A stretch of 62,946 bases of DNA, counting the filler, from Anaerolineae bacterium (GTDB taxonomy: Bacteria > Chloroflexota > Anaerolineae > B4-G1 > DUEL01), in NCBI GenBank assembly GCA_041082215.1. It is 6 parts of 6 records of this genome, joined end to end, with 100 filler letters (N's around TTAATTAATTAA, not from the genome) between each part and the next. Parts side by side here need not be neighbours in the genome. Positions count along the whole stretch, not along the records: positions 58,053 to 60,687 come from JBDOIF010000135.1; 5 more parts are not named here. One strand, written 5' to 3'. A model generated the notes under the pieces. That model was not told the DNA's origin. It saw nothing but the letters and a program-made list of their open reading frames with translations, and ran no database searches. Below are positions 11,945-60,787 of this stretch, one piece after another (position 1 is the stretch's first letter; every line of letters begins with the position of its first letter). The translations under genes were made by a program, and so were the position numbers.

Positions 11945-11996
11945 TGGGTGACTCGGTGACTCGGTGACTGGGTGATTGGGTGATTGGGTGATTGGG
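11945..11996. repeat. Octamer tandem array (GGGTGAYT / CGGTGACT)
   Basis: About six imperfect 8-nt units between copZ and copA. Confidence 0.85.
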
Positions 11997-21404: not shown

Positions 21405-21504
21405 NNNNNNNNNNNNNNNNNNNNNNNNNNNNNNNNNNNNNNNNNNNNTTAATTAATTAANNNNNNNNNNNNNNNNNNNNNNNNNNNNNNNNNNNNNNNN
21501 NNNN
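21405..21504. other. Artificial contig linker
   Basis: N run + TTAATTAATTAA + N run. Confidence 0.98.
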
Positions 21505-25353: not shown

Positions 25354-26086
25354 CCTGTTGCTGAAAAGCCTGCAGACCGATGCGCCGGTCCGCCAGGTAC
25401 TGGTGGGGGCCTTCTGGACAGCGGTAGTGCTGGATACCGATCCACCCCGCTGTGGCCTGGCTTCCACCCTGCGTGGAGAGGACCACGAAGCCGATCCGCC
25501 AGTGCCCGATGCAGGCCATCTCGCAGAGAAAAGCGCACAGGCGCTGGCTGAGCGGCTGCGCTCGGAGCACACGCTCGAGGCCAGCATCGGAATGGCAGCC
25601 TTCAACGCCTTATTGGACGTAGATGAATCAACCTGTGTAGAAATGAACGCCGAGGAGGTCATCATCGAGAGAGGAACAGGGCGACGGGTTGCTATCGTCG
25701 GCCACTTCCCGTTTGTGGACCGGGTGCGACGGGCAGCGTCGCAATGCTGGGTGGTGGAACTGCACCCACGTCAGGGCGATCTGCCCGCCGGACGGGCCTC
25801 CGAGGTACTGCCACAGGCAGATGTGGTCGCCCTGACCGGCACGTCGCTTATCAACCACACCTTCGATGACCTCATCCAGCTCTGCCGACCCGATGCCTAC
25901 GTTCTGCTCCTGGGCCCCAGCGCGCCGCTTGCCCCCATCCTCTTCGAGGCTCGCGTGGATGCGATCAGCGGCACACTGGTCACCGACCCCGACCGGGTGC
26001 TGACCGCCCTCTCTCAGGGTGCTACGTTTCGACAGATCAAACAAACCGGTGGCCTGCGCTTGCTGACAATGACGAATGACGCTTGA
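25340..26086 (+). CDS. DUF364 Rossmann-like protein
   Basis: ASIGMAAFNA, VGHFPF, DVVALTGTSLINHT, LGPSAP. Confidence 0.8.
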   Translation: MNTIDLLLKSLQTDAPVRQVLVGAFWTAVVLDTDPPRCGLASTLRGEDHEADPPVPDAGHLAEKSAQALAERLRSEHTLEASIGMAAFNALLDVDESTCVEMNAEEVIIERGTGRRVAIVGHFPFVDRVRRAASQCWVVELHPRQGDLPAGRASEVLPQADVVALTGTSLINHTFDDLIQLCRPDAYVLLLGPSAPLAPILFEARVDAISGTLVTDPDRVLTALSQGATFRQIKQTGGLRLLTMTNDA

Positions 26087-26117
26087 CGAATGACGCTTGA
26101 CGAGTGCCATTTGACGC
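26069..26117. repeat. Heptamer tandem array (TGACGAA/TGACGCT)
   Basis: Alternating 7-mers spanning the DUF364 stop codon. Confidence 0.75.
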
Positions 26118-40430: not shown

Positions 40431-40918
40431 TGGACGTACTCCGTGTTACGTATTCCGTGTTGCGTATTCCGTGTTTCGTGTCTTCGTGCCTTCATAGTGA
40501 GAATCCACAAAGCCAGGGCGAGCAGGAAGAGGGCGATGCCAGCGTCTATGGCGAACAGGATGGGACGGGCGGGCGCCGTGCCGGGTTGGCGGAACAGGTA
40601 GAACTGGACGGCCGCGAAGGCCAGGACGGAGCCCGCCAGCACTCCCCAGCCGACGACCTGGCGAAGCCACCCCCGCGCCCCCAGCCGGTCCACCACCAGC
40701 AGGAATCCGACGGCCGCCGAGAGCGCCGCCAGCACATGCCAGTGGCCCACAGCGAAGGCCCGCTCCCAGGCCGGGTCGCCCGCCCGCACCGCCTCCAGAT
40801 TGACGGCTACCCAGACCCCCGGCACCGTCACCACCAGGTTGACGAAGAGCAGGTGGAAGAGCATCCCGAAGCGGATCGGGTCGCTCAGGAGCGCCCGCCA
40901 GGCCGGACGGTCCGGCCG
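40427..40918 (-). CDS. Membrane protein, 5' truncated at gap
   Basis: Several TM helices and GHWH; tail encoded by a heptamer repeat (RNTQHGIRNTEY). Confidence 0.6.
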   Translation of the reverse strand, partial: RPDRPAWRALLSDPIRFGMLFHLLFVNLVVTVPGVWVAVNLEAVRAGDPAWERAFAVGHWHVLAALSAAVGFLLVVDRLGARGWLRQVVGWGVLAGSVLAFAAVQFYLFRQPGTAPARPILFAIDAGIALFLLALALWILTMKARRHETRNTQHGIRNTEYVQ

Positions 40919-41018
40919 NNNNNNNNNNNNNNNNNNNNNNNNNNNNNNNNNNNNNNNNNNNNTTAATTAATTAANNNNNNNNNNNNNNNNNNNNNNNNNN
41001 NNNNNNNNNNNNNNNNNN
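40919..41018. other. Artificial contig linker
   Basis: N run + TTAATTAATTAA + N run. Confidence 0.98.
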
Positions 41019-41970: not shown

Positions 41971-42527
41971 TTTGCACCTCTTTTACTCTGGGGACTGGGT
42001 GATTGGGTGATTGGGTGACTGGGTGACTGGAGGGGTTTGAAGTAGAGGATGTCGGTGATGGCTCCTTCGCGTTCCTCTTCTGGCTTCCAGACCGCCTGTA
42101 CCCGCATCCCGATTTTCACCGCCTGCGGGTCAACTTCCCCCAGCAGGTGGAGGATGCCCATCCCCCGCGAGGCTCCGTCAATGGCGATGACGGCGGGAAT
42201 CTGGGGCTCCTCGACGCGCTCCATGTCCCAGGTGACATAGCAGAGGGAAAAGGTGACTACTGTACCGGTGTCCTGAAGGGGGACGAACGCATCGGCGGGA
42301 ACGAAGCAGTGCTCACAGAACATCCGCGGCGGGACCATCACCCGGTCGCATTGGGGGCAGTGGGTGCCGATCAGACGGCCTGCCTTCAGTCCCTGAAGGA
42401 ACCGGCCGATGGCGACTCCCGCGTCCCAGGCGTAGCGGGCATTGGGGTCCCAGGTTTCAAAGAGGACGCGCCCCTCCTGAAAGTCCTTTTCGCTCAGGTA
42501 GATGCTCTCGTAAACGTGTTGCTTCAT
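41967..42527 (-). CDS. DUF35 Zn-ribbon/OB-fold protein
   Basis: GTHCPQC...PPRMFCEHC, GTVVTFS, IGMRVQAVWKP; repeat-encoded tail. Confidence 0.88.
   Translation of the reverse strand: MKQHVYESIYLSEKDFQEGRVLFETWDPNARYAWDAGVAIGRFLQGLKAGRLIGTHCPQCDRVMVPPRMFCEHCFVPADAFVPLQDTGTVVTFSLCYVTWDMERVEEPQIPAVIAIDGASRGMGILHLLGEVDPQAVKIGMRVQAVWKPEEEREGAITDILYFKPLQSPSHPITQSPSPQSKRGAK
41989..42030. repeat. Octamer tandem array (GGGTGAYT)
   Basis: Same unit as 11945-11996. Confidence 0.8.
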
Positions 42528-42537
42528 CTCCCGCCTC

Positions 42538-43704
42538 CTAGATCCCCAGCACGATCACGGTGCCGACCTGCATCAGGTCGCCCCAGGCCTGGGCGACGCC
42601 CCGTTTTGGCTGGCCCGGCACCTGGCGGGCGCCCGCCTCGCCGCGCAACTGCCAGAAGAGCTCGGCCACCTTCATCAGGCCAGCGGCGGCGATGGGGTTG
42701 CCCACGCCCAAAAGGCCCCCGCTGGGGCAGACCGGCAGGTCACCATCCCGCTGGGTGATGCCCAGGGCTGTGGCCTCCGGCGCCTTGCCCCTGTCGAACA
42801 GCATCAGCCCCTCCAGATGGTGGAGTTCCTTATAGTCGAAGGGGTCGTAGGGTTCGGCGATGTGGATCTGCTTGCGCGGCTCGGTGATGCCGGCCATCTT
42901 ATAGGCCATCCGCGCCGCCTCCTCCACGTAGGTGGGGTAGGAGAGGTCCCGGCTGGTCCAGTAGGCGGTGTCGAGGCTCCAGCCCACGCCCTCCACCCAG
43001 ACCGGCTTGTCGGTCACCCGGCGGGCGACATGCTCGGCGCACATCACCAGCGCCACCGCCCCATCGGTGACGGGGCTCACATCCAGCCGCTGCACGGGCC
43101 AGGCGAGCACCTCCGAATTAAGCACATCTTCCACCGTGATGTTCGGATCCCCCAGCAGCGCCGCCGGGTGGTCGGCCGCGTTCCGCTTGTTCTTTACCGA
43201 CACCAGAGCGATGTCCCGCTTGTCCAACCCGTACCGGCTCATATAGGCATTCATCTCCAGGGCGAAGATCCACAGGAGGTTCGGTCCCAGCGGCCGCTCG
43301 GTGGTGTGGTCGAAGATGGTCAGGAAGGCCCCTTGCGGGTGGGGCTGGCAGGAGGACATTTTCTCCTCGGCGACGACGAGGACGGTGTCGAAGAGGCCGC
43401 TGGCGACGTGGTACCAGCCCTGGATAGGGGCGAAGACCCCCGTGCCGCCGCCGACATAGCCACGGATGACGGGCTTGCCCCAGCCGCCAGCGCCATCGGA
43501 GAGGTATTCGCTCTTCATATGAACGCCGTCGAAAGCCTCTGGGGCGCTGTCTACGATCACGGCATCTATATCGTCCAGCGTCAGCTCGCAGGACTCCAGC
43601 GCCTTGCTGGCGGCCTCCCAGGCCAGTTCCTTGGCCGTCTCCTGGGCGCGGCGGACGAATCGGGTCATCCCCGCGCCGACAACTGCAACTCGATTTCGTC
43701 CCAT
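42538..43704 (-). CDS. Thiolase-superfamily (SCP2/Ltp-like) protein
   Basis: VAVVGAGMT, AEEKMS, SPVTDGAVA, AEPYDPF, PVCPSGGLLG. Confidence 0.85.
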   Translation of the reverse strand: MGRNRVAVVGAGMTRFVRRAQETAKELAWEAASKALESCELTLDDIDAVIVDSAPEAFDGVHMKSEYLSDGAGGWGKPVIRGYVGGGTGVFAPIQGWYHVASGLFDTVLVVAEEKMSSCQPHPQGAFLTIFDHTTERPLGPNLLWIFALEMNAYMSRYGLDKRDIALVSVKNKRNAADHPAALLGDPNITVEDVLNSEVLAWPVQRLDVSPVTDGAVALVMCAEHVARRVTDKPVWVEGVGWSLDTAYWTSRDLSYPTYVEEAARMAYKMAGITEPRKQIHIAEPYDPFDYKELHHLEGLMLFDRGKAPEATALGITQRDGDLPVCPSGGLLGVGNPIAAAGLMKVAELFWQLRGEAGARQVPGQPKRGVAQAWGDLMQVGTVIVLGI

Positions 43705-44866: not shown

Positions 44867-44958
44867 AGCTCGGACCTCCTGGAAAAATACAGGTGGCAGG
44901 TTGGCAGGTAAGCAGATTGGCAGGGTTATGCACTGCGGTTCTCCGTGTTGCACCTCCT

Positions 44959-53359: not shown

Positions 53360-53459
53360 NNNNNNNNNNNNNNNNNNNNNNNNNNNNNNNNNNNNNNNNN
53401 NNNTTAATTAATTAANNNNNNNNNNNNNNNNNNNNNNNNNNNNNNNNNNNNNNNNNNNN
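53360..53459. other. Artificial contig linker
   Basis: N run + TTAATTAATTAA + N run. Confidence 0.98.
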
Positions 53460-53789
53460 ATCTTCACCCGAACGTACGATTTCATCACCTGGCTTCTGCC
53501 GGTGACCAACCACTTCCCCCGCGCGCATCGCTTCACCTTCACCCGCCGGCTGCTGGATGCCGCCTTCGATCTGCTGGAGCGGCTGGAGGAGGCCAATCAC
53601 CGCCAGGGGAAGCTTCGTCTCGCGCTGCTGAAGGAGGCGGACATCTATCTGGATCGGGTGCGGCTATACCTGCGAATGGCCACACGCTGGGAGTGGCTCT
53701 CTGCCGGTCAGTACCGTCATGCTGCGGAGATGGTGACGGAGATCGGTCGCCTTCTCGGAGGCTGGCAGAAGGTCACCCATGAAGAATAG
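53460..53789 (+). CDS. avd: DGR accessory variability determinant Avd (5' truncated)
   Basis: IFTRTYDFITWLLPVTNHFPRAHRF...LYLRMA..WEWLSAGQY......EIGRLLGGWQK, directly upstream of the TR. Confidence 0.9.
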   Translation: MFTRTYDFITWLLPVTNHFPRAHRFTFTRRLLDAAFDLLERLEEANHRQGKLRLALLKEADIYLDRVRLYLRMATRWEWLSAGQYRHAAEMVTEIGRLLGGWQKVTHEE

Positions 53790-53868
53790 GAGGCAACTCG
53801 CGGCCCAACCATCGGGCCGCCGTTGCGGGGGCGGGCCGGCAACTGCCGCCGGGCTGTGGAAGGGTGGG

Positions 53869-53990
53869 CCCGCGCGGTGCGCGGCGGCTCCTTCAACAAC
53901 AATCGCCGCAACGTGCGCTGCGCCTACCGCAACAGGGACAACCCCGACAACTTCAACAGGAATCAGGGGTTTCGTCCGGTGGCGGCCACG
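53869..53990 (+). repeat. DGR template repeat (TR)
   Basis: 122-nt ungapped match to the VR; nine AAC/AAT triplets in the target reading frame. Confidence 0.95.
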
Positions 53991-54182
53991 CTTTTCCGGT
54001 ATGCCGGAACTGCCCGGCGGGGAGGGCAACAACCAGAGTTGCCCCTGCCTTCCGGGCCGAGGCGAGAAAAACGGCGCGGCCCGCCCCTGGCCGGCGGGCC
54101 CTTCCCCCGGGATGGGATCCGCCGGGCGAATACGGAAGCGCCCTGCCCCCTGGGTTCATCTCTGGGGCTGGGCACGCCGCAG

Positions 54183-54215
54183 AGGTGCCAGGCGCCTCGA
54201 AGGCGCCTGGCACCT
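54183..54215. repeat. Perfect 14-bp hairpin upstream of RT
   Basis: AGGTGCCAGGCGCC-TCGAA-GGCGCCTGGCACCT. Confidence 0.8.
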
Positions 54216-54226
54216 GGCCCCAGCAA

Positions 54227-55279
54227 ATGTATACTCAACTCTGTTCGTGGGATAATCTGCTCCTGTCCTATCGCCGCGCCAGCAAGGGAAAGCGTGGCCA
54301 TCCATCCGTGGCCGCCTTCGAGTACCGCCTGGAGACTAATCTGCTCCAACTCCAACAGGAGCTGGCGACGAAGCGGTATCAGCCAGGCCCTTACAACTCC
54401 TTCTACATCCACGATCCCAAGCGCCGCCTCATCTCCGCTGCCCCCTTTCGGGATCGCGTGGTCCATCACGCCCTCTGTAACGTCATCGAACCTCTCTTCG
54501 AGCACCGCTTCATCTTCGATTCCTATGCCAACCGGGTGGGTAAGGGCACCCACCGGGCACTCGATCGGTGCCAGCAGTTTGCCCGCCGCTTCCGTTACGT
54601 GCTCCAATGTGATGTGCGCCAGTTTTTCCCCGCCATTGACCACGCCATCCTCAGGGAAACCCTGGGCCGCGTCATCGCTGACTCCAACGTGATGTGGCTG
54701 GTGGGCCGCATTCTGGAGAGCGGCGTTGGTGTGCTGAGCGAGGAGTACGAGATGGTCTACTTCCCCGGCGACGATCTCTTCGCCGCCCTCCGCCCCCGCG
54801 GCCTGCCCATCGGCAACCTGACCAGCCAGTTCTGGGCCAACTGCTACCTGGACCCCTTCGACCACTTCGTGAAGCGGGAACTGCGGTGCAAGGGGTATCT
54901 GCGATATGTAGACGATTTCCTGCTCTTCGCCGATGACAAGGCAACACTGTGGGCCTGGCAGGAGGCGGTGATGGCCCGGCTGGCCCAATTGCGACTCACG
55001 CTCCACGAAGAACGGGCACACCCTCGTCCGGTAACCGAGGGCATCCCCTTCCTGGGCTTCGTGGTCTATCCCACCCACCGGCGGTTAAAGCGGCGGAAGG
55101 GGATCGCCTACCGGCGGAGGCTAAAAGGGCTGCTGCGAGCATTCGCAGCGGGCCAGGTCTCGCTAGAACAGGTGGACGCTTCCGTTCAGGGATGGATCAA
55201 CCACATCCGGTACGGTGACACCTGGGGGTTGAGGCGGGCAGTATTTAACAGCCTGCCCGTCCATCCCCCTCCGGTATGA
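54227..55279 (+). CDS. DGR reverse transcriptase
   Basis: PKRRLISAAPFRDRVVHHAL, GKGTH, CDVRQFFPAIDH, GLPIGNLTSQFWAN, YLRYVDDF, FLGF; 350 aa with no maturase or endonuclease tail. Confidence 0.95.
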   Translation: MYTQLCSWDNLLLSYRRASKGKRGHPSVAAFEYRLETNLLQLQQELATKRYQPGPYNSFYIHDPKRRLISAAPFRDRVVHHALCNVIEPLFEHRFIFDSYANRVGKGTHRALDRCQQFARRFRYVLQCDVRQFFPAIDHAILRETLGRVIADSNVMWLVGRILESGVGVLSEEYEMVYFPGDDLFAALRPRGLPIGNLTSQFWANCYLDPFDHFVKRELRCKGYLRYVDDFLLFADDKATLWAWQEAVMARLAQLRLTLHEERAHPRPVTEGIPFLGFVVYPTHRRLKRRKGIAYRRRLKGLLRAFAAGQVSLEQVDASVQGWINHIRYGDTWGLRRAVFNSLPVHPPPV

Positions 55280-55325
55280 TCAGACGGCCGGCACCCGCTA
55301 CGACCAGAGGGACCAGAGACCAGAG

Positions 55326-57614
55326 CTATACCGGGGCCGCCACCGGACGAAACCCCAGCCTCCTGAGGAAGACGTCGGGGAAGTCCCCGCCGCGGTAGGC
55401 GCAGCGCACGAAGCGGCGACCGAGGTTGAAGGAGCCGCCGCGCACCGCGCGGGGGGCCGCCCCCTCCAGGCCGTTATCTTCCCTCTCCAGGTAGCCCCCG
55501 TAATCCCCTACCCACCTGGTGGCGCACCACTCCCACACGTTGCCGGCCATATCCGCCGCCCCGTAGGGGCTGTCCCCGTCGGGGGAGTACTGACCCACCG
55601 GGGTCGGGCGGCCAGGGCCGCCCTCGGCGCTGTTGCACCGCCTGGGATCCCATTCATCCCCCCAGGGGTACTTCCGGCCGTATTCGCCCCGCGCCGCCTT
55701 CTCCCATTCCGCCTCGGTGGGTAACCGGATCTGCCATCCCTCGGGCAGGGGCGCAGCGCGCTGCGCCCCTGCGGCCTCCACCGGCTGCCGCAACCGCTCC
55801 GTGAGCCAGCGACAGTAGGCCACTGCCTCGTACCAGGAGATGCCAACCACCGGTTGCAGGGGGTTATCAAACCCCTTATCGCGCCAGTAACGAGGTTCGG
55901 TCCAGCGCTCCTTCTCCTTCGCTGCCCATCCAGCCTCCGTCCAGTATCTGCGCTCCTTGTACCCACCTGCTTCCACGAAACGGCGGAACTCCTGGTTGGT
56001 CACCGGATAGCGGCCGATCCAGTATTCATAGGGAATGTCATAAGTGTGCCGTGGTTTCTCGTTGTCATAAGCGTCCGGGTCGTCGTCCGCGCTGCCCATC
56101 AGGAAGGGGCCGGCCGGGACGCGGACGAACTGGTCCATCACGAACTCGCCAGGGGACTCCGGCTGCCGCTCCAGCAGGCGGGGCGCAACCCGCCTCGGGG
56201 TGGGCTCCTCCACCTCCCCCACCGGCGGGGCGGTGAGGTGGATGTAAAGGTGGAGCTCCTCCGGCCCGATCTCGAATCCCTCCAGCTGGGCCAGCACGCC
56301 CTGCAGCCGCCGGTTCTCGCCGATCATGGCCTTCAGTTGGGGGTCAATGGGAGGTCCTCCCTCGTCGGCTTCCCTCCCCCGTTTTATGAACGCGATCCCC
56401 TCCCGGATGCGCTGGGGCCGCTCCCTCTCCGGCAATTGCTCCAGCCAGGCCCGGAACGTCTCCCCGCCTGCCTCTGTGAGCACCAGCCACAGATGGAAGT
56501 GGTCCCGATTCGCTCTCTCCGCCTGCCCGGAATTGAGCAGGAGCGCCCACTGTAGCTCGGCATAGTTGATAAAGGTCTTGATGCGGCGGGGGTTGGTCTC
56601 CCCCCCCCGGGTCAGCAGCCTGAGGCTTTCCACCAGCGATGGGTTGGCTTCCGCCAGCCGCTGTTCGCCGGCCCGGAGACCGTCCAGGAAGTCAGCCAGG
56701 CTCTGCTCCCCCTCCGGCTGCAGGGGCGGCAGATCGAACCGGACCTGGATGATCTTATCCAGATACCGCTGGCTCTCCCGCCGCAGTCCCTCGAAACTCC
56801 TGTAGTGGGCAGCCACCGCCTCCTCCACCACCTTCCGCGAGGCTCCGATCACGAAGACCGTGCCGGGCCTGTCCATCATCAGTTTGATCGCCTCCAGCAC
56901 CTGGACCGTCTTTTCCGGCAGGCAGCGGTCCAGGTCGTCTATAAAGATGGTCAGCACGCCGCGGCGGTCGTCAATGCATCGGTCGGGTGCATCGTCCCGG
57001 TAGAGCCACCAGCCCACCAGCCGGTCGAAGACCTCCAAGAACTCGTCCAGGAAAGCCAGGTTGGCCCTGAAGCGGGATTCGGCCTCAAAGCGGGTCAGGT
57101 CCAAGTCAATCTTGCCCAGGGAGAAGACCTGGGAGAGGGTACTGAGGACGGCCTCGGGAACCCGGAGTTGCGTTTGCTTGGGATCGGAGAGGGCAGCGTA
57201 GAGTCTGGTGATGGTTCCATCCCGCCGCATCTCCCGGAGCACTTCCTCCACCAGGGCGACGAAGAGAGCCTCCTCCCGGCTGTACTTCCAGGCGTTGAAC
57301 CAGACAGTGCGTACGGGACGGAACTGCTCATCGTCAGGCCACTTCTCCCCTTCTGCGATGAATCCAGGCCGCTTCTTGCGGTCGGTCGTCTGGTCCAGAT
57401 AGGCCCGCATCGCCCGCATCAGCGTCGTCTTGCCCGATCCCCACTCTCCGTGGATGCCGATGGTGAGGGGAGTGCAGGTATGCCTGGCGGCGATGATGCG
57501 GGCGAAGGTGCGGGCGTAGCTGTCAAACTGGAAGTAAGAAGGCTCTTCGGGCCGCAGCGGCTGGTCGTTGAAGATGAGCGGGGTGATCCAGCGCGGTTTG
57601 CTTTTCTCTGCCAT
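55326..57614 (-). CDS. DGR target: KAP-family P-loop NTPase fused to an FGE-sulfatase-type (CLec) domain
   Basis: GEWGSGKT, FNAWKY, FIDDLDRC, YLDKIIQ, NPRRIK; then FLMGS, YPVTN, PVVGISWYEA, RLPTEAEWEKAARG, DMAGNVWEW, VRGGSF...LGFRPV; ATG after GGAGG. Confidence 0.93.
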   Translation of the reverse strand: MAEKSKPRWITPLIFNDQPLRPEEPSYFQFDSYARTFARIIAARHTCTPLTIGIHGEWGSGKTTLMRAMRAYLDQTTDRKKRPGFIAEGEKWPDDEQFRPVRTVWFNAWKYSREEALFVALVEEVLREMRRDGTITRLYAALSDPKQTQLRVPEAVLSTLSQVFSLGKIDLDLTRFEAESRFRANLAFLDEFLEVFDRLVGWWLYRDDAPDRCIDDRRGVLTIFIDDLDRCLPEKTVQVLEAIKLMMDRPGTVFVIGASRKVVEEAVAAHYRSFEGLRRESQRYLDKIIQVRFDLPPLQPEGEQSLADFLDGLRAGEQRLAEANPSLVESLRLLTRGGETNPRRIKTFINYAELQWALLLNSGQAERANRDHFHLWLVLTEAGGETFRAWLEQLPERERPQRIREGIAFIKRGREADEGGPPIDPQLKAMIGENRRLQGVLAQLEGFEIGPEELHLYIHLTAPPVGEVEEPTPRRVAPRLLERQPESPGEFVMDQFVRVPAGPFLMGSADDDPDAYDNEKPRHTYDIPYEYWIGRYPVTNQEFRRFVEAGGYKERRYWTEAGWAAKEKERWTEPRYWRDKGFDNPLQPVVGISWYEAVAYCRWLTERLRQPVEAAGAQRAAPLPEGWQIRLPTEAEWEKAARGEYGRKYPWGDEWDPRRCNSAEGGPGRPTPVGQYSPDGDSPYGAADMAGNVWEWCATRWVGDYGGYLEREDNGLEGAAPRAVRGGSFNLGRRFVRCAYRGGDFPDVFLRRLGFRPVAAPV
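55332..55453 (-). repeat. DGR variable repeat (VR)
   Basis: Last ~40 codons of the target; 19 mismatches to the TR, 18 at TR adenines. Confidence 0.95.
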
Positions 57615-57782
57615 CGAGCCCCCTCCTAAAGTTGTTTCAGGTGGCGGAGCTTGCGCGGTTTCTTCACGTACCGTTTTGAAGTATAATCGTCTCGAAGAAT
57701 CCGCGCAAATCCGCTCATTCGTGTCATCTGGCCCATTCGTGGTATTCGTGATCCGCAAGCGCTTAGTTAGAGGGATGGGAAG

Positions 57783-57952
57783 ATGCCGTTTCTGGAAATC
57801 CGTCGCCTGCACAAATCCTACCCCGACGGCTGGACCCTTTCCGACGTCAGTTTCTCCGTCGAGGAGGGGGAGATCCTCTGCCTCCTGGGCCCCTCCGGCT
57901 GCGGCAAGACGACCCTGCTGCGGCTCATCGCCGGGCTGGAGGTGCCGGACGG
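57783..57952 (+). CDS. ABC transporter ATP-binding protein (3' truncated)
   Basis: [20 protein letters not shown]. Confidence 0.88.
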
Positions 57953-58052
57953 NNNNNNNNNNNNNNNNNNNNNNNNNNNNNNNNNNNNNNNNNNNNTTAA
58001 TTAATTAANNNNNNNNNNNNNNNNNNNNNNNNNNNNNNNNNNNNNNNNNNNN
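57953..58052. other. Artificial contig linker
   Basis: N run + TTAATTAATTAA + N run. Confidence 0.98.
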
Positions 58053-58400
58053 GGAGCCAGATACAACATCAAGATCAACACCATCGCCCCCATCGCCGCC
58101 ACCCGCCTCACCCAGGATATCCTCCCACCCGACCTCCACGACCGCCTCACCCCAGACTTCGTCTCCCCACTCGCCCTCTACCTCTGCTCCGAACAGTGCC
58201 CGGTGAGCGGCCGCATCTACCAGGCCGGGGGCGGCGTCTACGGTCGGGCCGCCGTGGTGAGCGGGCCGGGGGTCAGGCTGGGCACCGACAAGCCCCCCAC
58301 CCCCGAGGAGATCGCCGCCCACTGGCAGGAGGTCCTCTCGCTGGAGGGGGCGAAGGAATACGAGAACGCGAATGAGGCGTTGATGAGCATGTTGGAGTGA
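58053..58400 (+). CDS. C-terminus of an SDR oxidoreductase (hydroxyacyl-CoA dehydrogenase-like)
   Basis: GARYNIKINTIAPIAATRLT...PDFVSPLALYLCSE...SGRIYQAGGG. Confidence 0.8.
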   Translation, partial: GARYNIKINTIAPIAATRLTQDILPPDLHDRLTPDFVSPLALYLCSEQCPVSGRIYQAGGGVYGRAAVVSGPGVRLGTDKPPTPEEIAAHWQEVLSLEGAKEYENANEALMSMLE

Positions 58401-58469
58401 AACGTCAAACGTCAAACGTCAAACGTCAAACGTCAAACGTCAAACGTCAAACGTCAAGCGTCAAAGGTC
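58400..58469 (+). repeat. Heptamer array (AAACGTC)x8 plus 2 degenerate units
   Basis: Counted directly from the sequence. Confidence 0.95.
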
Positions 58470-58484
58470 AACGAGGGAGGAGCA

Positions 58485-59006
58485 GTGGATTACGAGGAGT
58501 GGCTGGTGACAGTCCCAGAGGAGATCAGGGCCGATTCTTTATGGAGAGTAACGGCCTACCGTCTGGCCCTGTTTTTGGGTGACCTGGGATGGCACGACAC
58601 AGCGAGGCTGGTCGAGGACCGGCGAATGGTCAGCCTGGCCGATCAGTTGTACCGGGCTTTGGGATCCATCAGCGCCAATCTGGCTGAAGGATACTCACGA
58701 GGGACTGGCAGGGACCGTGCCCGCTTCTACGAATACGCCCTTGGTTCCGACCGAGAAAGTCGGGATTGGTACTTCAAGGCCCGGCACATTCTTGGAGAGA
58801 CCGTGTTCCGGCACCGTCTACAATTGCTCACGCGGCTGATCCAGCTCATTCTGGTTATGATCCCCCAACAACGGGGGCGCTCCCTGCGGGAGCCGCTGGC
58901 CACCTATGGGCCGTGTGCCGACCAGGCAGAAATAGACAAGACTCATAGCGAGCTGGAAACCTCGCTCACCGCCCTACTCCACCATATCCCTCTCCCTGAC
59001 GCCTGA
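58485..59006 (+). CDS. Four-helix-bundle protein (23S rRNA IVS protein / bAvd-like superfamily)
   Basis: DQLYRALGSISANLAEGYSR...RFYEYALGSDRES motif; GGAGGAG RBS. Confidence 0.85.
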   Translation: MDYEEWLVTVPEEIRADSLWRVTAYRLALFLGDLGWHDTARLVEDRRMVSLADQLYRALGSISANLAEGYSRGTGRDRARFYEYALGSDRESRDWYFKARHILGETVFRHRLQLLTRLIQLILVMIPQQRGRSLREPLATYGPCADQAEIDKTHSELETSLTALLHHIPLPDA

Positions 59007-59052
59007 TGCCTGACGTATGACGTATGACGTATGACGTATGACGTATAACGTG
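58997..59052 (+). repeat. Heptamer array (TGACGTA)x5 plus degenerate flanking units
   Basis: Counted directly; near reverse complement of the upstream array. Confidence 0.95.
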
Positions 59053-59067
59053 CAACGGGAGGAGACC

Positions 59068-60687
59068 ATGATCGGCATTATCTCCTACGGCGGCTACATC
59101 CCCCGGCTCCGGCTCAGCCGGGCCAGTATCGTGCAGAACATCGGCTGGCTGGCTCCGGCGATCATCACCGTCGCCCAGGGGGAGCGGTCCTTCTGCAACT
59201 GGGACGAAGATAGCCTCACCATGGCGGTGGCCGCGGCACGCGATTGCCTGACGGGGACCGAAAGGCAGGAGGTGGACGGCCTCTACCTGGCCTCCACAAC
59301 CCTCCCCTTCGCCGACCGGCTCAACGCCGGCATCGTCGCCACCGCCCTCAACCTGCGCGAGGACCTCCTCGCCGCCGATTTCACCTCGACGCAGCGGGCA
59401 GGGACCACGGCGCTGGTCGCCGCGCTGGAAGCGGTGCAGGGCGGAGCACGGAAGCGGGTGCTGGTGGCTGCATCAGACCGGCGGGAGGCAAAGGCTGGCT
59501 CCTTCTACGAGATGTGGTTCGGCGACGGGGCCGCCGCCCTGCTGGTGGGGGATGGGGACGTGATCGCCGGGTTCAAGGGCGCCCACTCCGTCTCCTGCGA
59601 CTTCGTGAGCCACTACCGGGGCGCGCTCCGCCGCTTCGATTACGCCTGGGAGGAGCGCTGGGTGCGGGATGAAGGGTATGCCCGGATCCTCCCCGAAGCC
59701 ATCCAGGGGCTCCTGAAGAAACTGAACCTCTCCATCGAAGAAGTGGACAAACTGGCCTACCCCTGCTTCATCAAACGGCAACACGGCCGCATCGGCCGGG
59801 AGCTGGGGGCCAAACCCGAACAGATCATGGACAACCTCCACGAACTCTGCGGCGAGACCGGAACCGCTCACCCGCTGGTCCTGCTGGTCCACGCCCTGGA
59901 GACGGCCCAGCCCGGCGAGCGGATCCTGGTGGCCGGCTTCGGCCAGGGCTGCGACGCTCTCCTCTTCGAGGTTACCGAAGCCATCCGGGACCTGCCCCCA
60001 CGGACCGGCATCCGTGGCTCGCTGGCGAACAAGAAGAGCACCGACAACTACCTCAAGTTCCTCAAGTTCCGCGACCTGATCGTCACCGAAGAAGGGATCC
60101 GGGCCGAGGCTCCAAAGCAGACGGCCATGACCACCCTCTGGCGGAAGCGGAAGATGATCCTGGGGCTGGTCGGCGGTCGGTGCACTGTCTGCGGCACGCC
60201 CCAGTTCCCCAGGATGGACATCTGTGCCAACCCCGACTGTGGCGCGGTGCACACCCAGGAGGACTACGAGTTCGCCGACCGGCCCGCTGTGGTCAGGTCC
60301 TTCACCGGCGACATGCTGGCCGTCTCTGTGGACCCGCCCGCCATCTATGGAATGGTCCAGTTCGAGGGGGGCGGCCGGATGATGGCCGACTTCACCGACT
60401 GCGAACTGGAGGAGGTGCGGGTGGGGATGCCGGTGCGGATGGTCTTCCGGCGGCACCACGTGGACGAGGAGCGCGGGTTTGTGGGGTATTTCTGGAAGGC
60501 GGCGCCCGTTGTGGAGGCGGGGAAGCGTGCCGAGAGGGAGATCCGCTTTGATGGTCGGGTGGCGGTGGTGACGGGCGCCGGACGCGGCCTGGGACGGGCC
60601 TACGCACTGGAGCTGGCCAAGCGCGGCGCCAAAGTCGTCGTCAACGACCCCGGCGTCGCTCCCGACGGCTCCGGCGGCTCCACCCAG
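59068..60687 (+). CDS. HMG-CoA-synthase-like + DUF35 + SDR fusion protein (3' truncated)
   Basis: [35 protein letters not shown]...C...C and [44 protein letters not shown]. Confidence 0.8.
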
Positions 60688-60787
60688 NNNNNNNNNNNNN
60701 NNNNNNNNNNNNNNNNNNNNNNNNNNNNNNNTTAATTAATTAANNNNNNNNNNNNNNNNNNNNNNNNNNNNNNNNNNNNNNNNNNNN
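60688..60787. other. Artificial contig linker
   Basis: N run + TTAATTAATTAA + N run. Confidence 0.98.

Follow-up and report, generated by a model that had tools for sequence, protein, structure and literature searches.

A PF05635 four-helix-bundle gene between complementary heptamer arrays in an Anaerolineae genome: a candidate intervening-sequence-like cassette

The window analyzed here, a stretch of 62,946 bases from the metagenome-assembled genome (MAG) of an Anaerolineae bacterium (GCA_041082215.1; 3.53 Mb in 174 contigs), joins six MAG contigs (C47, C48, C51, C52, C53, and C55), of which C53 (positions 58053-60687, 2635 bp) carries a gene for a small four-helix-bundle protein of the PF05635 family placed between two tandem heptamer arrays whose units are reverse-complementary at six of seven positions. 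The gene and its two arrays form a discrete recurrent unit rather than a chance neighborhood. The order of this unit is an A/G-rich unit array, a ribosome-binding site (RBS), the PF05635 open reading frame (ORF), and a complementary unit array, and its position is intercistronic and co-oriented with the host operon. With moderate confidence, we interpret the locus as one copy of a widespread, promoterless cassette resembling the intervening sequences (IVSs) of 23S rRNA, whose arms would close a long imperfect stem that would probably be processed by RNase III.

Array complementarity in the genome and across the family

The original prediction had described heptamer arrays on both sides of the four-helix-bundle gene, the complementarity of their units, and a possible periodic stem of about 50 bp looping out the gene with its RBS; the arrays and their complementarity were recovered, and the stem reappears as a predicted fold. 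Tandem Repeats Finder (TRF) delimited both arrays together with degenerate units over the stop codon of the gene (Table 1), such that the first base of the upstream array is the last base of the stop codon of the preceding gene and the four-helix-bundle ORF terminates within the degenerate part of the second array. When the flanks are aligned for complementarity without gaps, the top alignment spans 55 nt with a score of 30 and one A.A mismatch per unit, which ranks the gene first among the 2553 genes of the genome for flank-to-flank complementarity (runner-up 18.5; 99.9th percentile 18.2; 99th percentile 11.7). RNA duplex folding between flanks was discarded as a measure (-46 to -114 kcal/mol over all genes, with the cassette gene at rank 169 of 2553), and the ungapped complementarity score was used in its place because duplex folding is uninformative at 65% GC. 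In the predicted minimum free energy (MFE) and centroid structures of the RNA from 58380 to 59080, the arrays pair in six 6-bp helices with single mismatches between them, and both the RBS and the ORF are enclosed (z = -4.72; none of 20 shuffles was as stable).

Across the whole genome, spaced inverted array pairs around one small gene were observed only on C53 and C135, and both genes are among the six PF05635 matches of this genome. The gene on C135, which is truncated, ranks 32nd; it is preceded by (CTGGTTG)n, and its 3' end carries (CAACGAG)n. A paralog on C83, 62% identical, ranks 17th for direct flank repeats; the PF05635 gene on C26 has an 8-mer array upstream and the one on C154 has no flanking array, while the sixth match is the Avd gene of a diversity-generating retroelement (DGR) at a contig edge.

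The encoded protein exceeds the cut-offs of both family models, matching PF05635 at 5e-12 (46.4 bits against a cut-off of 33.8) and TIGR02436 at 1.9e-14 (53.8 bits against a cut-off of 24). An alignment of 24 homologs exhibited a conserved N-terminal motif, and the long forms end in an LLxDVPLP-type C-terminus abutting the array. The AlphaFold2 model (pLDDT 90.5) comprises four long helices with N- and C-terminal extras, and its top Foldseek matches (TM-score, target-normalized) were Xcc0516 (2GSC, 0.86-0.87) and BT_0352 (2RLD_E, 0.90), followed by the DGR protein Avd (4DWL_C, TM-score 0.82; 8UBE_D). A profile search against PDB sequences pointed to the same structures (2gsc, 3.1e-6; 2rld, 1.1e-4). 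The modeled fold is thus an S23p/Avd-like four-helix bundle, in agreement with the kinship to 23S rRNA IVS ORFs and Avd which had been proposed at the outset and which is also described in the available text of PMC4990558 and PMC10053308; the same texts present 2GSC as a homopentameric toroid.

Within the same family and order, 30 of 41 genomes, counting the own genome, encode homologs of the protein, and the matches number up to eight in a single genome. Of the 29 loci of relatives, 23 have arrays flanking the gene on both sides by a reading of the TRF output, three have them on a single side (a contig end cuts two of these three), and three have none. The threshold for the complementary flank score in these comparisons was set from the distribution in the own genome, with slightly smaller flank windows; a score of at least 12 was found in 24 of 30 loci (own included), and the median was 18 versus 7.5 for mismatched locus pairs. 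The units vary by locus and the arms remain complementary, as in GCAGATT/AATCTGC, GGCAAGTT/ACTTGCCC, AGTGAAT/CCATTCA, and AGCGAATC/TTCGCTGA. A wider scan with one genome per species returned 591 relatives, the best 80 of which were analyzed; many of the loci in these comparisons are short MAG contigs ending in arrays. By MAG labels, the best 80 are mostly Chloroflexota and represent about ten phyla overall, with further labels of Acidobacteria, Poribacteria, Verrucomicrobia, Binatia, Calditrichota, Marinimicrobia, Latescibacterota, Rhodothermales, Ignavibacterium, and Pseudomonadota. Their loci carry TRF arrays on both flanks (54), upstream only (10), downstream only (12), or on neither side (4). 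The complementary score reached at least 12 in 70 of the 80, against two of 80 when the downstream flank was reversed and seven of 80 when it was complemented; direct flank similarity of at least 12 was observed in 12 of 80.

Co-variation of the arms was examined in 106 non-duplicate loci through the unit characteristic of the subfamily, ACGT-N-AA upstream and TT-N'-ACGT downstream, and 70 of these loci carry two or more such units in both flanks. In 56 of the 70, the majority N is the Watson-Crick partner of the majority N', against an expectation of about 28 from the marginals, and the concordance holds by base (A:T 17/20, C:G 8/11, G:C 31/39). Other PF05635 subfamilies were sampled in four distant genomes, reached via loci titled Poribacteria, Rhodothermales, Binatia, and Chloroflexia, by taking all PF05635 matches with a locus. 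Here, 19 of 26 genes scored at least 12, with controls at 0/26 and 1/26, and the units differ again, being mostly tandem and A/G-rich by eye; one Chloroflexia genome alone has 16 PF05635 matches. The association of PF05635 genes with complementary arrays, which the original prediction had proposed to look for, is family-wide.

Orthologous sites and the readings weighed

A comparison with empty sites had likewise been proposed, and the orthologous position proved to be filled in some genomes and nearly empty in others. Orthologs of the downstream gene, which is similar to HMG-CoA synthase (HMGS), were detected in 10 of the 41 genomes, and the cassette immediately precedes this gene in the genome of the window and in four genomes of the sister genus (L120, L121, L123, and L125). 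Among the unfilled cases, one congener has a 37-nt spacer with just one to two units per arm; another has, after the stop codon, one upstream unit and two downstream units; in a third, 8-mer units form a hairpin around a 27-nt loop that holds no gene; the closest other genus has a plain hairpin at the junction of the SDR and HMGS-like genes; and the fifth genome has a different upstream region. Where the site is filled, identity to the own locus is about 70% for the cassette protein, 72-75% for the HMGS-like gene, and 65% for the SDR end. Since the cassette and its neighbors have similar identities, the pattern fits vertical descent with later losses, and gains are also possible. Other conserved cassette contexts are found ahead of thiolase-like, MvhD-like, and FolD-like genes, and in all loci inspected the cassettes are solitary and lie between housekeeping genes. 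In the closest other genus, we also observed an SDR fused to an SCP2-like domain via a Glu/Lys/Gly-rich linker (L118:330-400), which is encoded by degenerate GGAAGCA-like heptamers, an array seemingly absorbed into the coding sequence.

For a cassette of this kind we infer a course that includes transcription through it, pairing in vivo, and cleavage by RNase III, as well as the spread of the cassette and a role for its protein. Transcription from the promoter of the host operon would run through the cassette, and the arrays would pair in the transcript as a stem of about 50 bp, made of 6-bp helices with one mismatch per unit, which would leave the RBS and ORF of the cassette in the loop and draw both host cistrons together. 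RNase III, whose gene is present elsewhere in the same genome, would then cut the stem, as in rRNA IVSs, and so separate the four-helix-bundle mRNA from those of the host genes. In the DNA, the palindromic arms may stay alike through intramolecular templating or conversion, and the same arms would favor deletion of the entire unit, with short inverted remnants staying behind.

Several hints, together with the precedent of rRNA IVSs, favor a role at the transcript level. Besides the predicted fold that encloses this cassette, the MFE structure pairs at least 20 nt of the upstream with the downstream flank in 85 of 102 cassettes, against 24 of 90 size-matched control genes taken from the same genome. 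The upstream arm is rich in purines in 80 of 90 stems, most neighbors are co-oriented by a crude longest-frame call (upstream, 69 in the same orientation versus 25; downstream, 79 versus 19), the scan for promoters and terminators found none at the arrays, and the genome encodes RNase III. Several findings weigh against this reading. Most of the 406 merged period-7/8 arrays in the genome are unrelated to PF05635 genes, and the loci compared are mutually related, so that the counts overstate the independent support. Control genes often pair their flanks too (the 24 of 90 just given), and about one-fifth of the neighbors are placed on the opposite strand by the crude call. In 93 stems, 2655 of 3234 positions are Watson-Crick pairs, and mismatches compatible with G.U on the sense strand (122) are in no excess over A.C mismatches (168); selection on a sense-RNA helix is hence not visible, and the complementarity could be held at the DNA level, by palindrome templating or as inverted protein-binding sites. 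A search of sequencing runs for the locus returned seven DNA runs with at least half of its sampled words, all of them hot-spring metagenomes, and no RNA run. Metagenome contigs with joints that skip 540-558 nt between the arrays were considered as excision products and rejected; the commonest joint carries the six loop letters of a solo hairpin on C102 of the same genome, so these joints represent other loci. What the original prediction had called a compact mobile or RNA-excised cassette is upheld as to the recurrent unit, its co-varying arms, and its presence and absence within a genus; its putative excision gained no support from the joints or from the wobble comparison.

The wobble result and the presence or absence at orthologous sites lend themselves to another reading, which we regard as possible and hold tentatively, namely a DNA-level element whose arrays are terminal inverted repeats made of reiterated protein-binding sites and serve looping, autoregulation, or excision/integration, with RNA pairing incidental; the encoded, putatively pentameric four-helix-bundle protein and a host nucleoid protein are candidate binders. 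It is also consistent with the many insertion contexts and phyla, the multiple copies per genome, the change of repeat units among protein subfamilies, and the paired inverted octa-/heptanucleotide sites of Geobacter metallireducens, proposed as IHF/HU-type sites in the available text of PMC2700814. It leaves unexplained, however, that in 80 of 90 stems the coding strand has its purine-rich arm on the upstream side (median purine fraction 0.68), a strand asymmetry that a symmetric function of double-stranded DNA would not predict, as well as the co-oriented operon position without a promoter of its own. Moreover, no recombinase lies nearby, and searches of plasmid (E<=1e-10) and phage (E<=1e-8) proteins gave no match to the cassette protein.

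Distinctly less plausible, we believe, is that the arrays are cis-regulatory spacers that tune the flanking cistrons through mRNA stability, translational coupling, or insulation of the inserted gene, with no excision and with the gene as a frequent passenger. Arrays do occupy spacers from the stop codon as far as the RBS, 88 of the 97 ACGTCA-type arrays avoid the interior of genes as delimited by a crude gene caller (2802 genes), and at 17 sites two complementary arrays with one mismatch per unit are directly adjacent with no gene between them; the PF05635 association is nonetheless far too specific for this explanation, with the first rank among 2553 genes and the sole single-gene enclosures in the genome, and it holds in genomes of other phyla. 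Chance was a serious rival at the outset because heptamer arrays occur genome-wide, with 97 arrays of the ACGTCA/TGACGT type against three in a reversed-sequence control, in addition to the period-7/8 total given above, and two independent arrays might simply happen to flank a small gene; other genes, such as that of RNase III, are flanked by direct arrays. The family-wide counts of complementary bracketing (24/30, 70/80, and 19/26, with controls near zero) and the co-variation of the arms led us to reject such a juxtaposition, which we deem highly improbable.

The layout points to what may be a little-known kind of selfish gene cassette. In a bolder extension of the IVS-like cassette, which we consider rather doubtful, the cassettes would be the free-living form of rRNA IVSs, a transposase-less selfish element in at least ten phyla, whose putative Avd-like pentamer would recognize its own repeats as RNA or DNA and drive their processing, their excision, or their copying, for which a reverse transcriptase of the host might be used. 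Were this so, the gene-less inverted arrays would be footprints of lost cassettes, and protein and repeat unit would co-evolve, which would account for the locus-specific units. PF05635/S23p proteins are abundant and have solved structures, and to our knowledge neither a function for them nor an explanation for the origin and spread of rRNA IVSs is established. The present data place free-standing members nearly always within co-varying complementary arrays, in operons of many phyla, at sites found both filled and empty, and they provide a defined RNA/DNA structure, natural covariation data, and cultivable relatives (Thermoflexus, Anaerolineae). They may also indicate how some of the puzzling short tandem arrays in Chloroflexota and other bacteria arose, and they call for caution from annotators and assemblers, given that the arrays break contigs near such genes.

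Locus, neighboring genes, and other repeats

The features of C53 and the spacers of the window are collected in Table 1, for which gene calls and ORF ends came from simple scripts. As the six contigs are separate, adjacency across spacers is meaningless.

Table 1. Features of contig C53 and inter-contig spacers, in window coordinates
Feature	Position	Strand	Evidence
Upstream SDR-domain gene, 3' end, cut by contig start; stop codon TGA at 58398-58400	58056..58400	+	ORF listing; NCBIfam PRK07791, 1e-10, profile positions 190-286, below curated cut-off
Upstream (5') arm, (AAACGTC)x10.3, A-rich	58400..58471	+	TRF score 130, 95% matches, period 7; paired in MFE and centroid structures
Shine-Dalgarno-like GAGGGAGGAG, 2 nt ahead of GTG; in the loop, outside the stem	58473..58482	+	Sequence reading and predicted fold
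Four-helix-bundle gene, 173 aa, GTG start; S23p / 23S_rRNA_IVP / TIGR02436	58485..59006	+	Pfam, NCBIfam, AlphaFold2, Foldseek, and PDB profile matches
Degenerate (CCTGACG)x3.0 coding the last codons and stop (TGA 59004-59006), leading into the 3' array	58995..59015	+	TRF, 85%
Downstream (3') arm, (TGACGTA)x5.9	59011..59051	+	TRF score 75, 97% matches
Shine-Dalgarno-like GGGAGGAG of the downstream gene, just beyond the stem	59057..59064	+	Sequence reading
Downstream gene: HMG-CoA-synthase-like/thiolase-like, OB fold (ChsH2_C), and SDR start; ATG at 59068; cut by contig end	59068..60687	+	PF08541, PF01796, PF00106; PRK04262, 1.8e-55, below cut-off
Five inter-contig spacers, each N44 + 12-base six-frame stop linker + N44	21405-21504, 40919-41018, 53360-53459, 57953-58052, 60688-60787		

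Both ends of C53 are halves of an SDR domain, which is a caveat on the label of operon for this locus. A metagenome contig of 687 nt links the end of C53 (60541-60680) back to its start (58060-58199) via 407 further bases, and its depth is 43.6 against 11-18 elsewhere, about two to three times as high. Two copies of the SDR domain were probably collapsed into one during assembly, and such a collapse probably explains the short length of the contig. As had been claimed, the ORF listing of C53 contains no transposase, and no recombinase or integrase lies nearby on the contig. C53 also gave no match to rRNA or any other Rfam family, and a promoter/terminator scan revealed no promoter- or terminator-like site at the arrays.

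The genome-wide abundance of heptamer arrays was not accounted for in the original prediction. Period 7 is the commonest TRF period in this genome, with 232 rows of at least 3.5 copies. The gene-less hairpins occur in both arm orders, with examples at C1:6143-6199, C7:22789-22838, C14:9770-9894, C99:18760-18829, C102:24387-24472, C128:58780-58843, and C134:13161-13259, and may represent either traces of lost cassettes or elements in their own right. Elsewhere in the window, arrays of period 7, 8, or 14 were found at 11945-11996 (TGGGTGAC), 26064-26103 (TGACGAA), 40434-40493 (ACGTATTCCGTGTT), 41988-42030 (CTGGGTGA), and 44890-44924 (CAGGTTGG). The RNase III gene (C24:20634-20990, minus strand; region C24:20256-21087) is flanked on both sides by direct GACGTTT arrays. 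On C123, a heptamer array of the ACGGAAT/ACGCAAT type (42586-42616) lies in frame in an AMP-ligase-like ORF and adds about ten residues, and the gene is preceded by a hairpin of the same unit family.

Another contig of the window, C52, carries a complete DGR (53460-57952), in which an Avd-like PF05635 ORF stands at the contig start (about 53469-53759), followed by the reverse transcriptase ORF (53864-55279, RVT_1) and, on the minus strand, a target gene (55326-57812) encoding a KAP NTPase and an FGE-sulfatase/C-type-lectin-like domain. Its template (53869-53990) and variable (55332-55453) repeats each span 122 nt and agree at 84% of positions, with template adenines at 18 of the 19 differences.

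Comparison with known systems

A literature search with little coverage of subscription journals returned no account of tandem arrays on the flanks of PF05635 genes. The cassette was set against systems that share some of its features. Integron gene cassettes, too, are single ORFs that lack a promoter of their own, bear an imperfect inverted repeat, and rely on an external promoter for expression. Unlike them, the cassette has neither an integrase nor an attC site at a single end, and its copies occur singly, dispersed over housekeeping operons instead of being stacked in an array; with no integrase on the contig and only solitary copies, this identity was ruled out.

The Correia elements (NEMIS) of Neisseria and the enterobacterial repetitive intergenic consensus (ERIC) sequences are miniature inverted-repeat elements which are co-transcribed with operons and cut in their hairpins. 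They resemble the cassette in being intercistronic, in their inverted ends folding in mRNA, in the lack of a transposase, and in their presence or absence among strains. However, they are non-coding and have ends of unique sequence, whereas the cassette has locus-variable tandem arrays as ends and encodes a conserved protein of 173 aa, which rules out an identity similar to that of miniature inverted-repeat transposable elements.

Heterocystous cyanobacteria have an abundance of tandem heptanucleotide arrays known as short tandemly repeated repetitive (STRR) heptamers, which belong to several unit families and are located mostly in intergenic regions and within operons. The arrays described here share with them the tandem 7-nt units, the many copies per genome, and the location mostly outside coding sequence, although the phylum and the units are different, and we know of no report of complementary STRR arrays paired around a specific gene family.

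In Geobacter metallireducens, pairs of tandem-repeat sites on opposite strands lie at variable distance in spacers such as proB-proA (Aklujkar 2009, PMC2700814), and in this they resemble the 17 solo hairpin arrays of the present genome. In contrast to the cassette, they are gene-less and are read as sites of global regulators (IHF/HU), and the available text of that study mentions no enclosed four-helix-bundle gene.

With Avd, the cassette protein has in common the four-helix-bundle fold of the two Avd structures retrieved by Foldseek, and PF05635 is the commonest DGR-associated family according to the available text of PMC10053308. Unlike a DGR, the cassette locus has no reverse transcriptase and no template or variable repeat. 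An Avd-of-a-DGR identity was thus rejected for the locus; C53 holds only the SDR fragment, the ORF, and the HMGS-like gene, and the DGR of the genome is on C52.

In its architecture, the cassette is like the 23S rRNA IVSs of Leptospira, Coxiella, and Brucella, which, in the available text of PMC4990558, have complementary borders with an S23p ORF inside and are cut out by RNase III. The cassette shares with them the protein family, the lack of a transposase, and a sporadic presence suggesting gain and loss, and its complementary borders would likewise form a stem-loop around the ORF, as predicted by both the MFE and centroid structures over the top-ranked 55-nt alignment. It is not an IVS proper, which by definition interrupts a helix of a 23S (or 16S) rRNA gene. 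It differs in lying between protein-coding genes and not in helix 9, 25, or 45 of 23S rRNA, in a stem built of tandem 7-8-nt units with periodic mismatches, and in a conserved ORF with a strong RBS; likewise, cleavage is documented for IVSs and presumed by analogy for the cassette. As part of the explanation favored above, and with the same moderate confidence, the cassette may be regarded as a non-ribosomal counterpart of the 23S rRNA IVSs that carry this ORF family.

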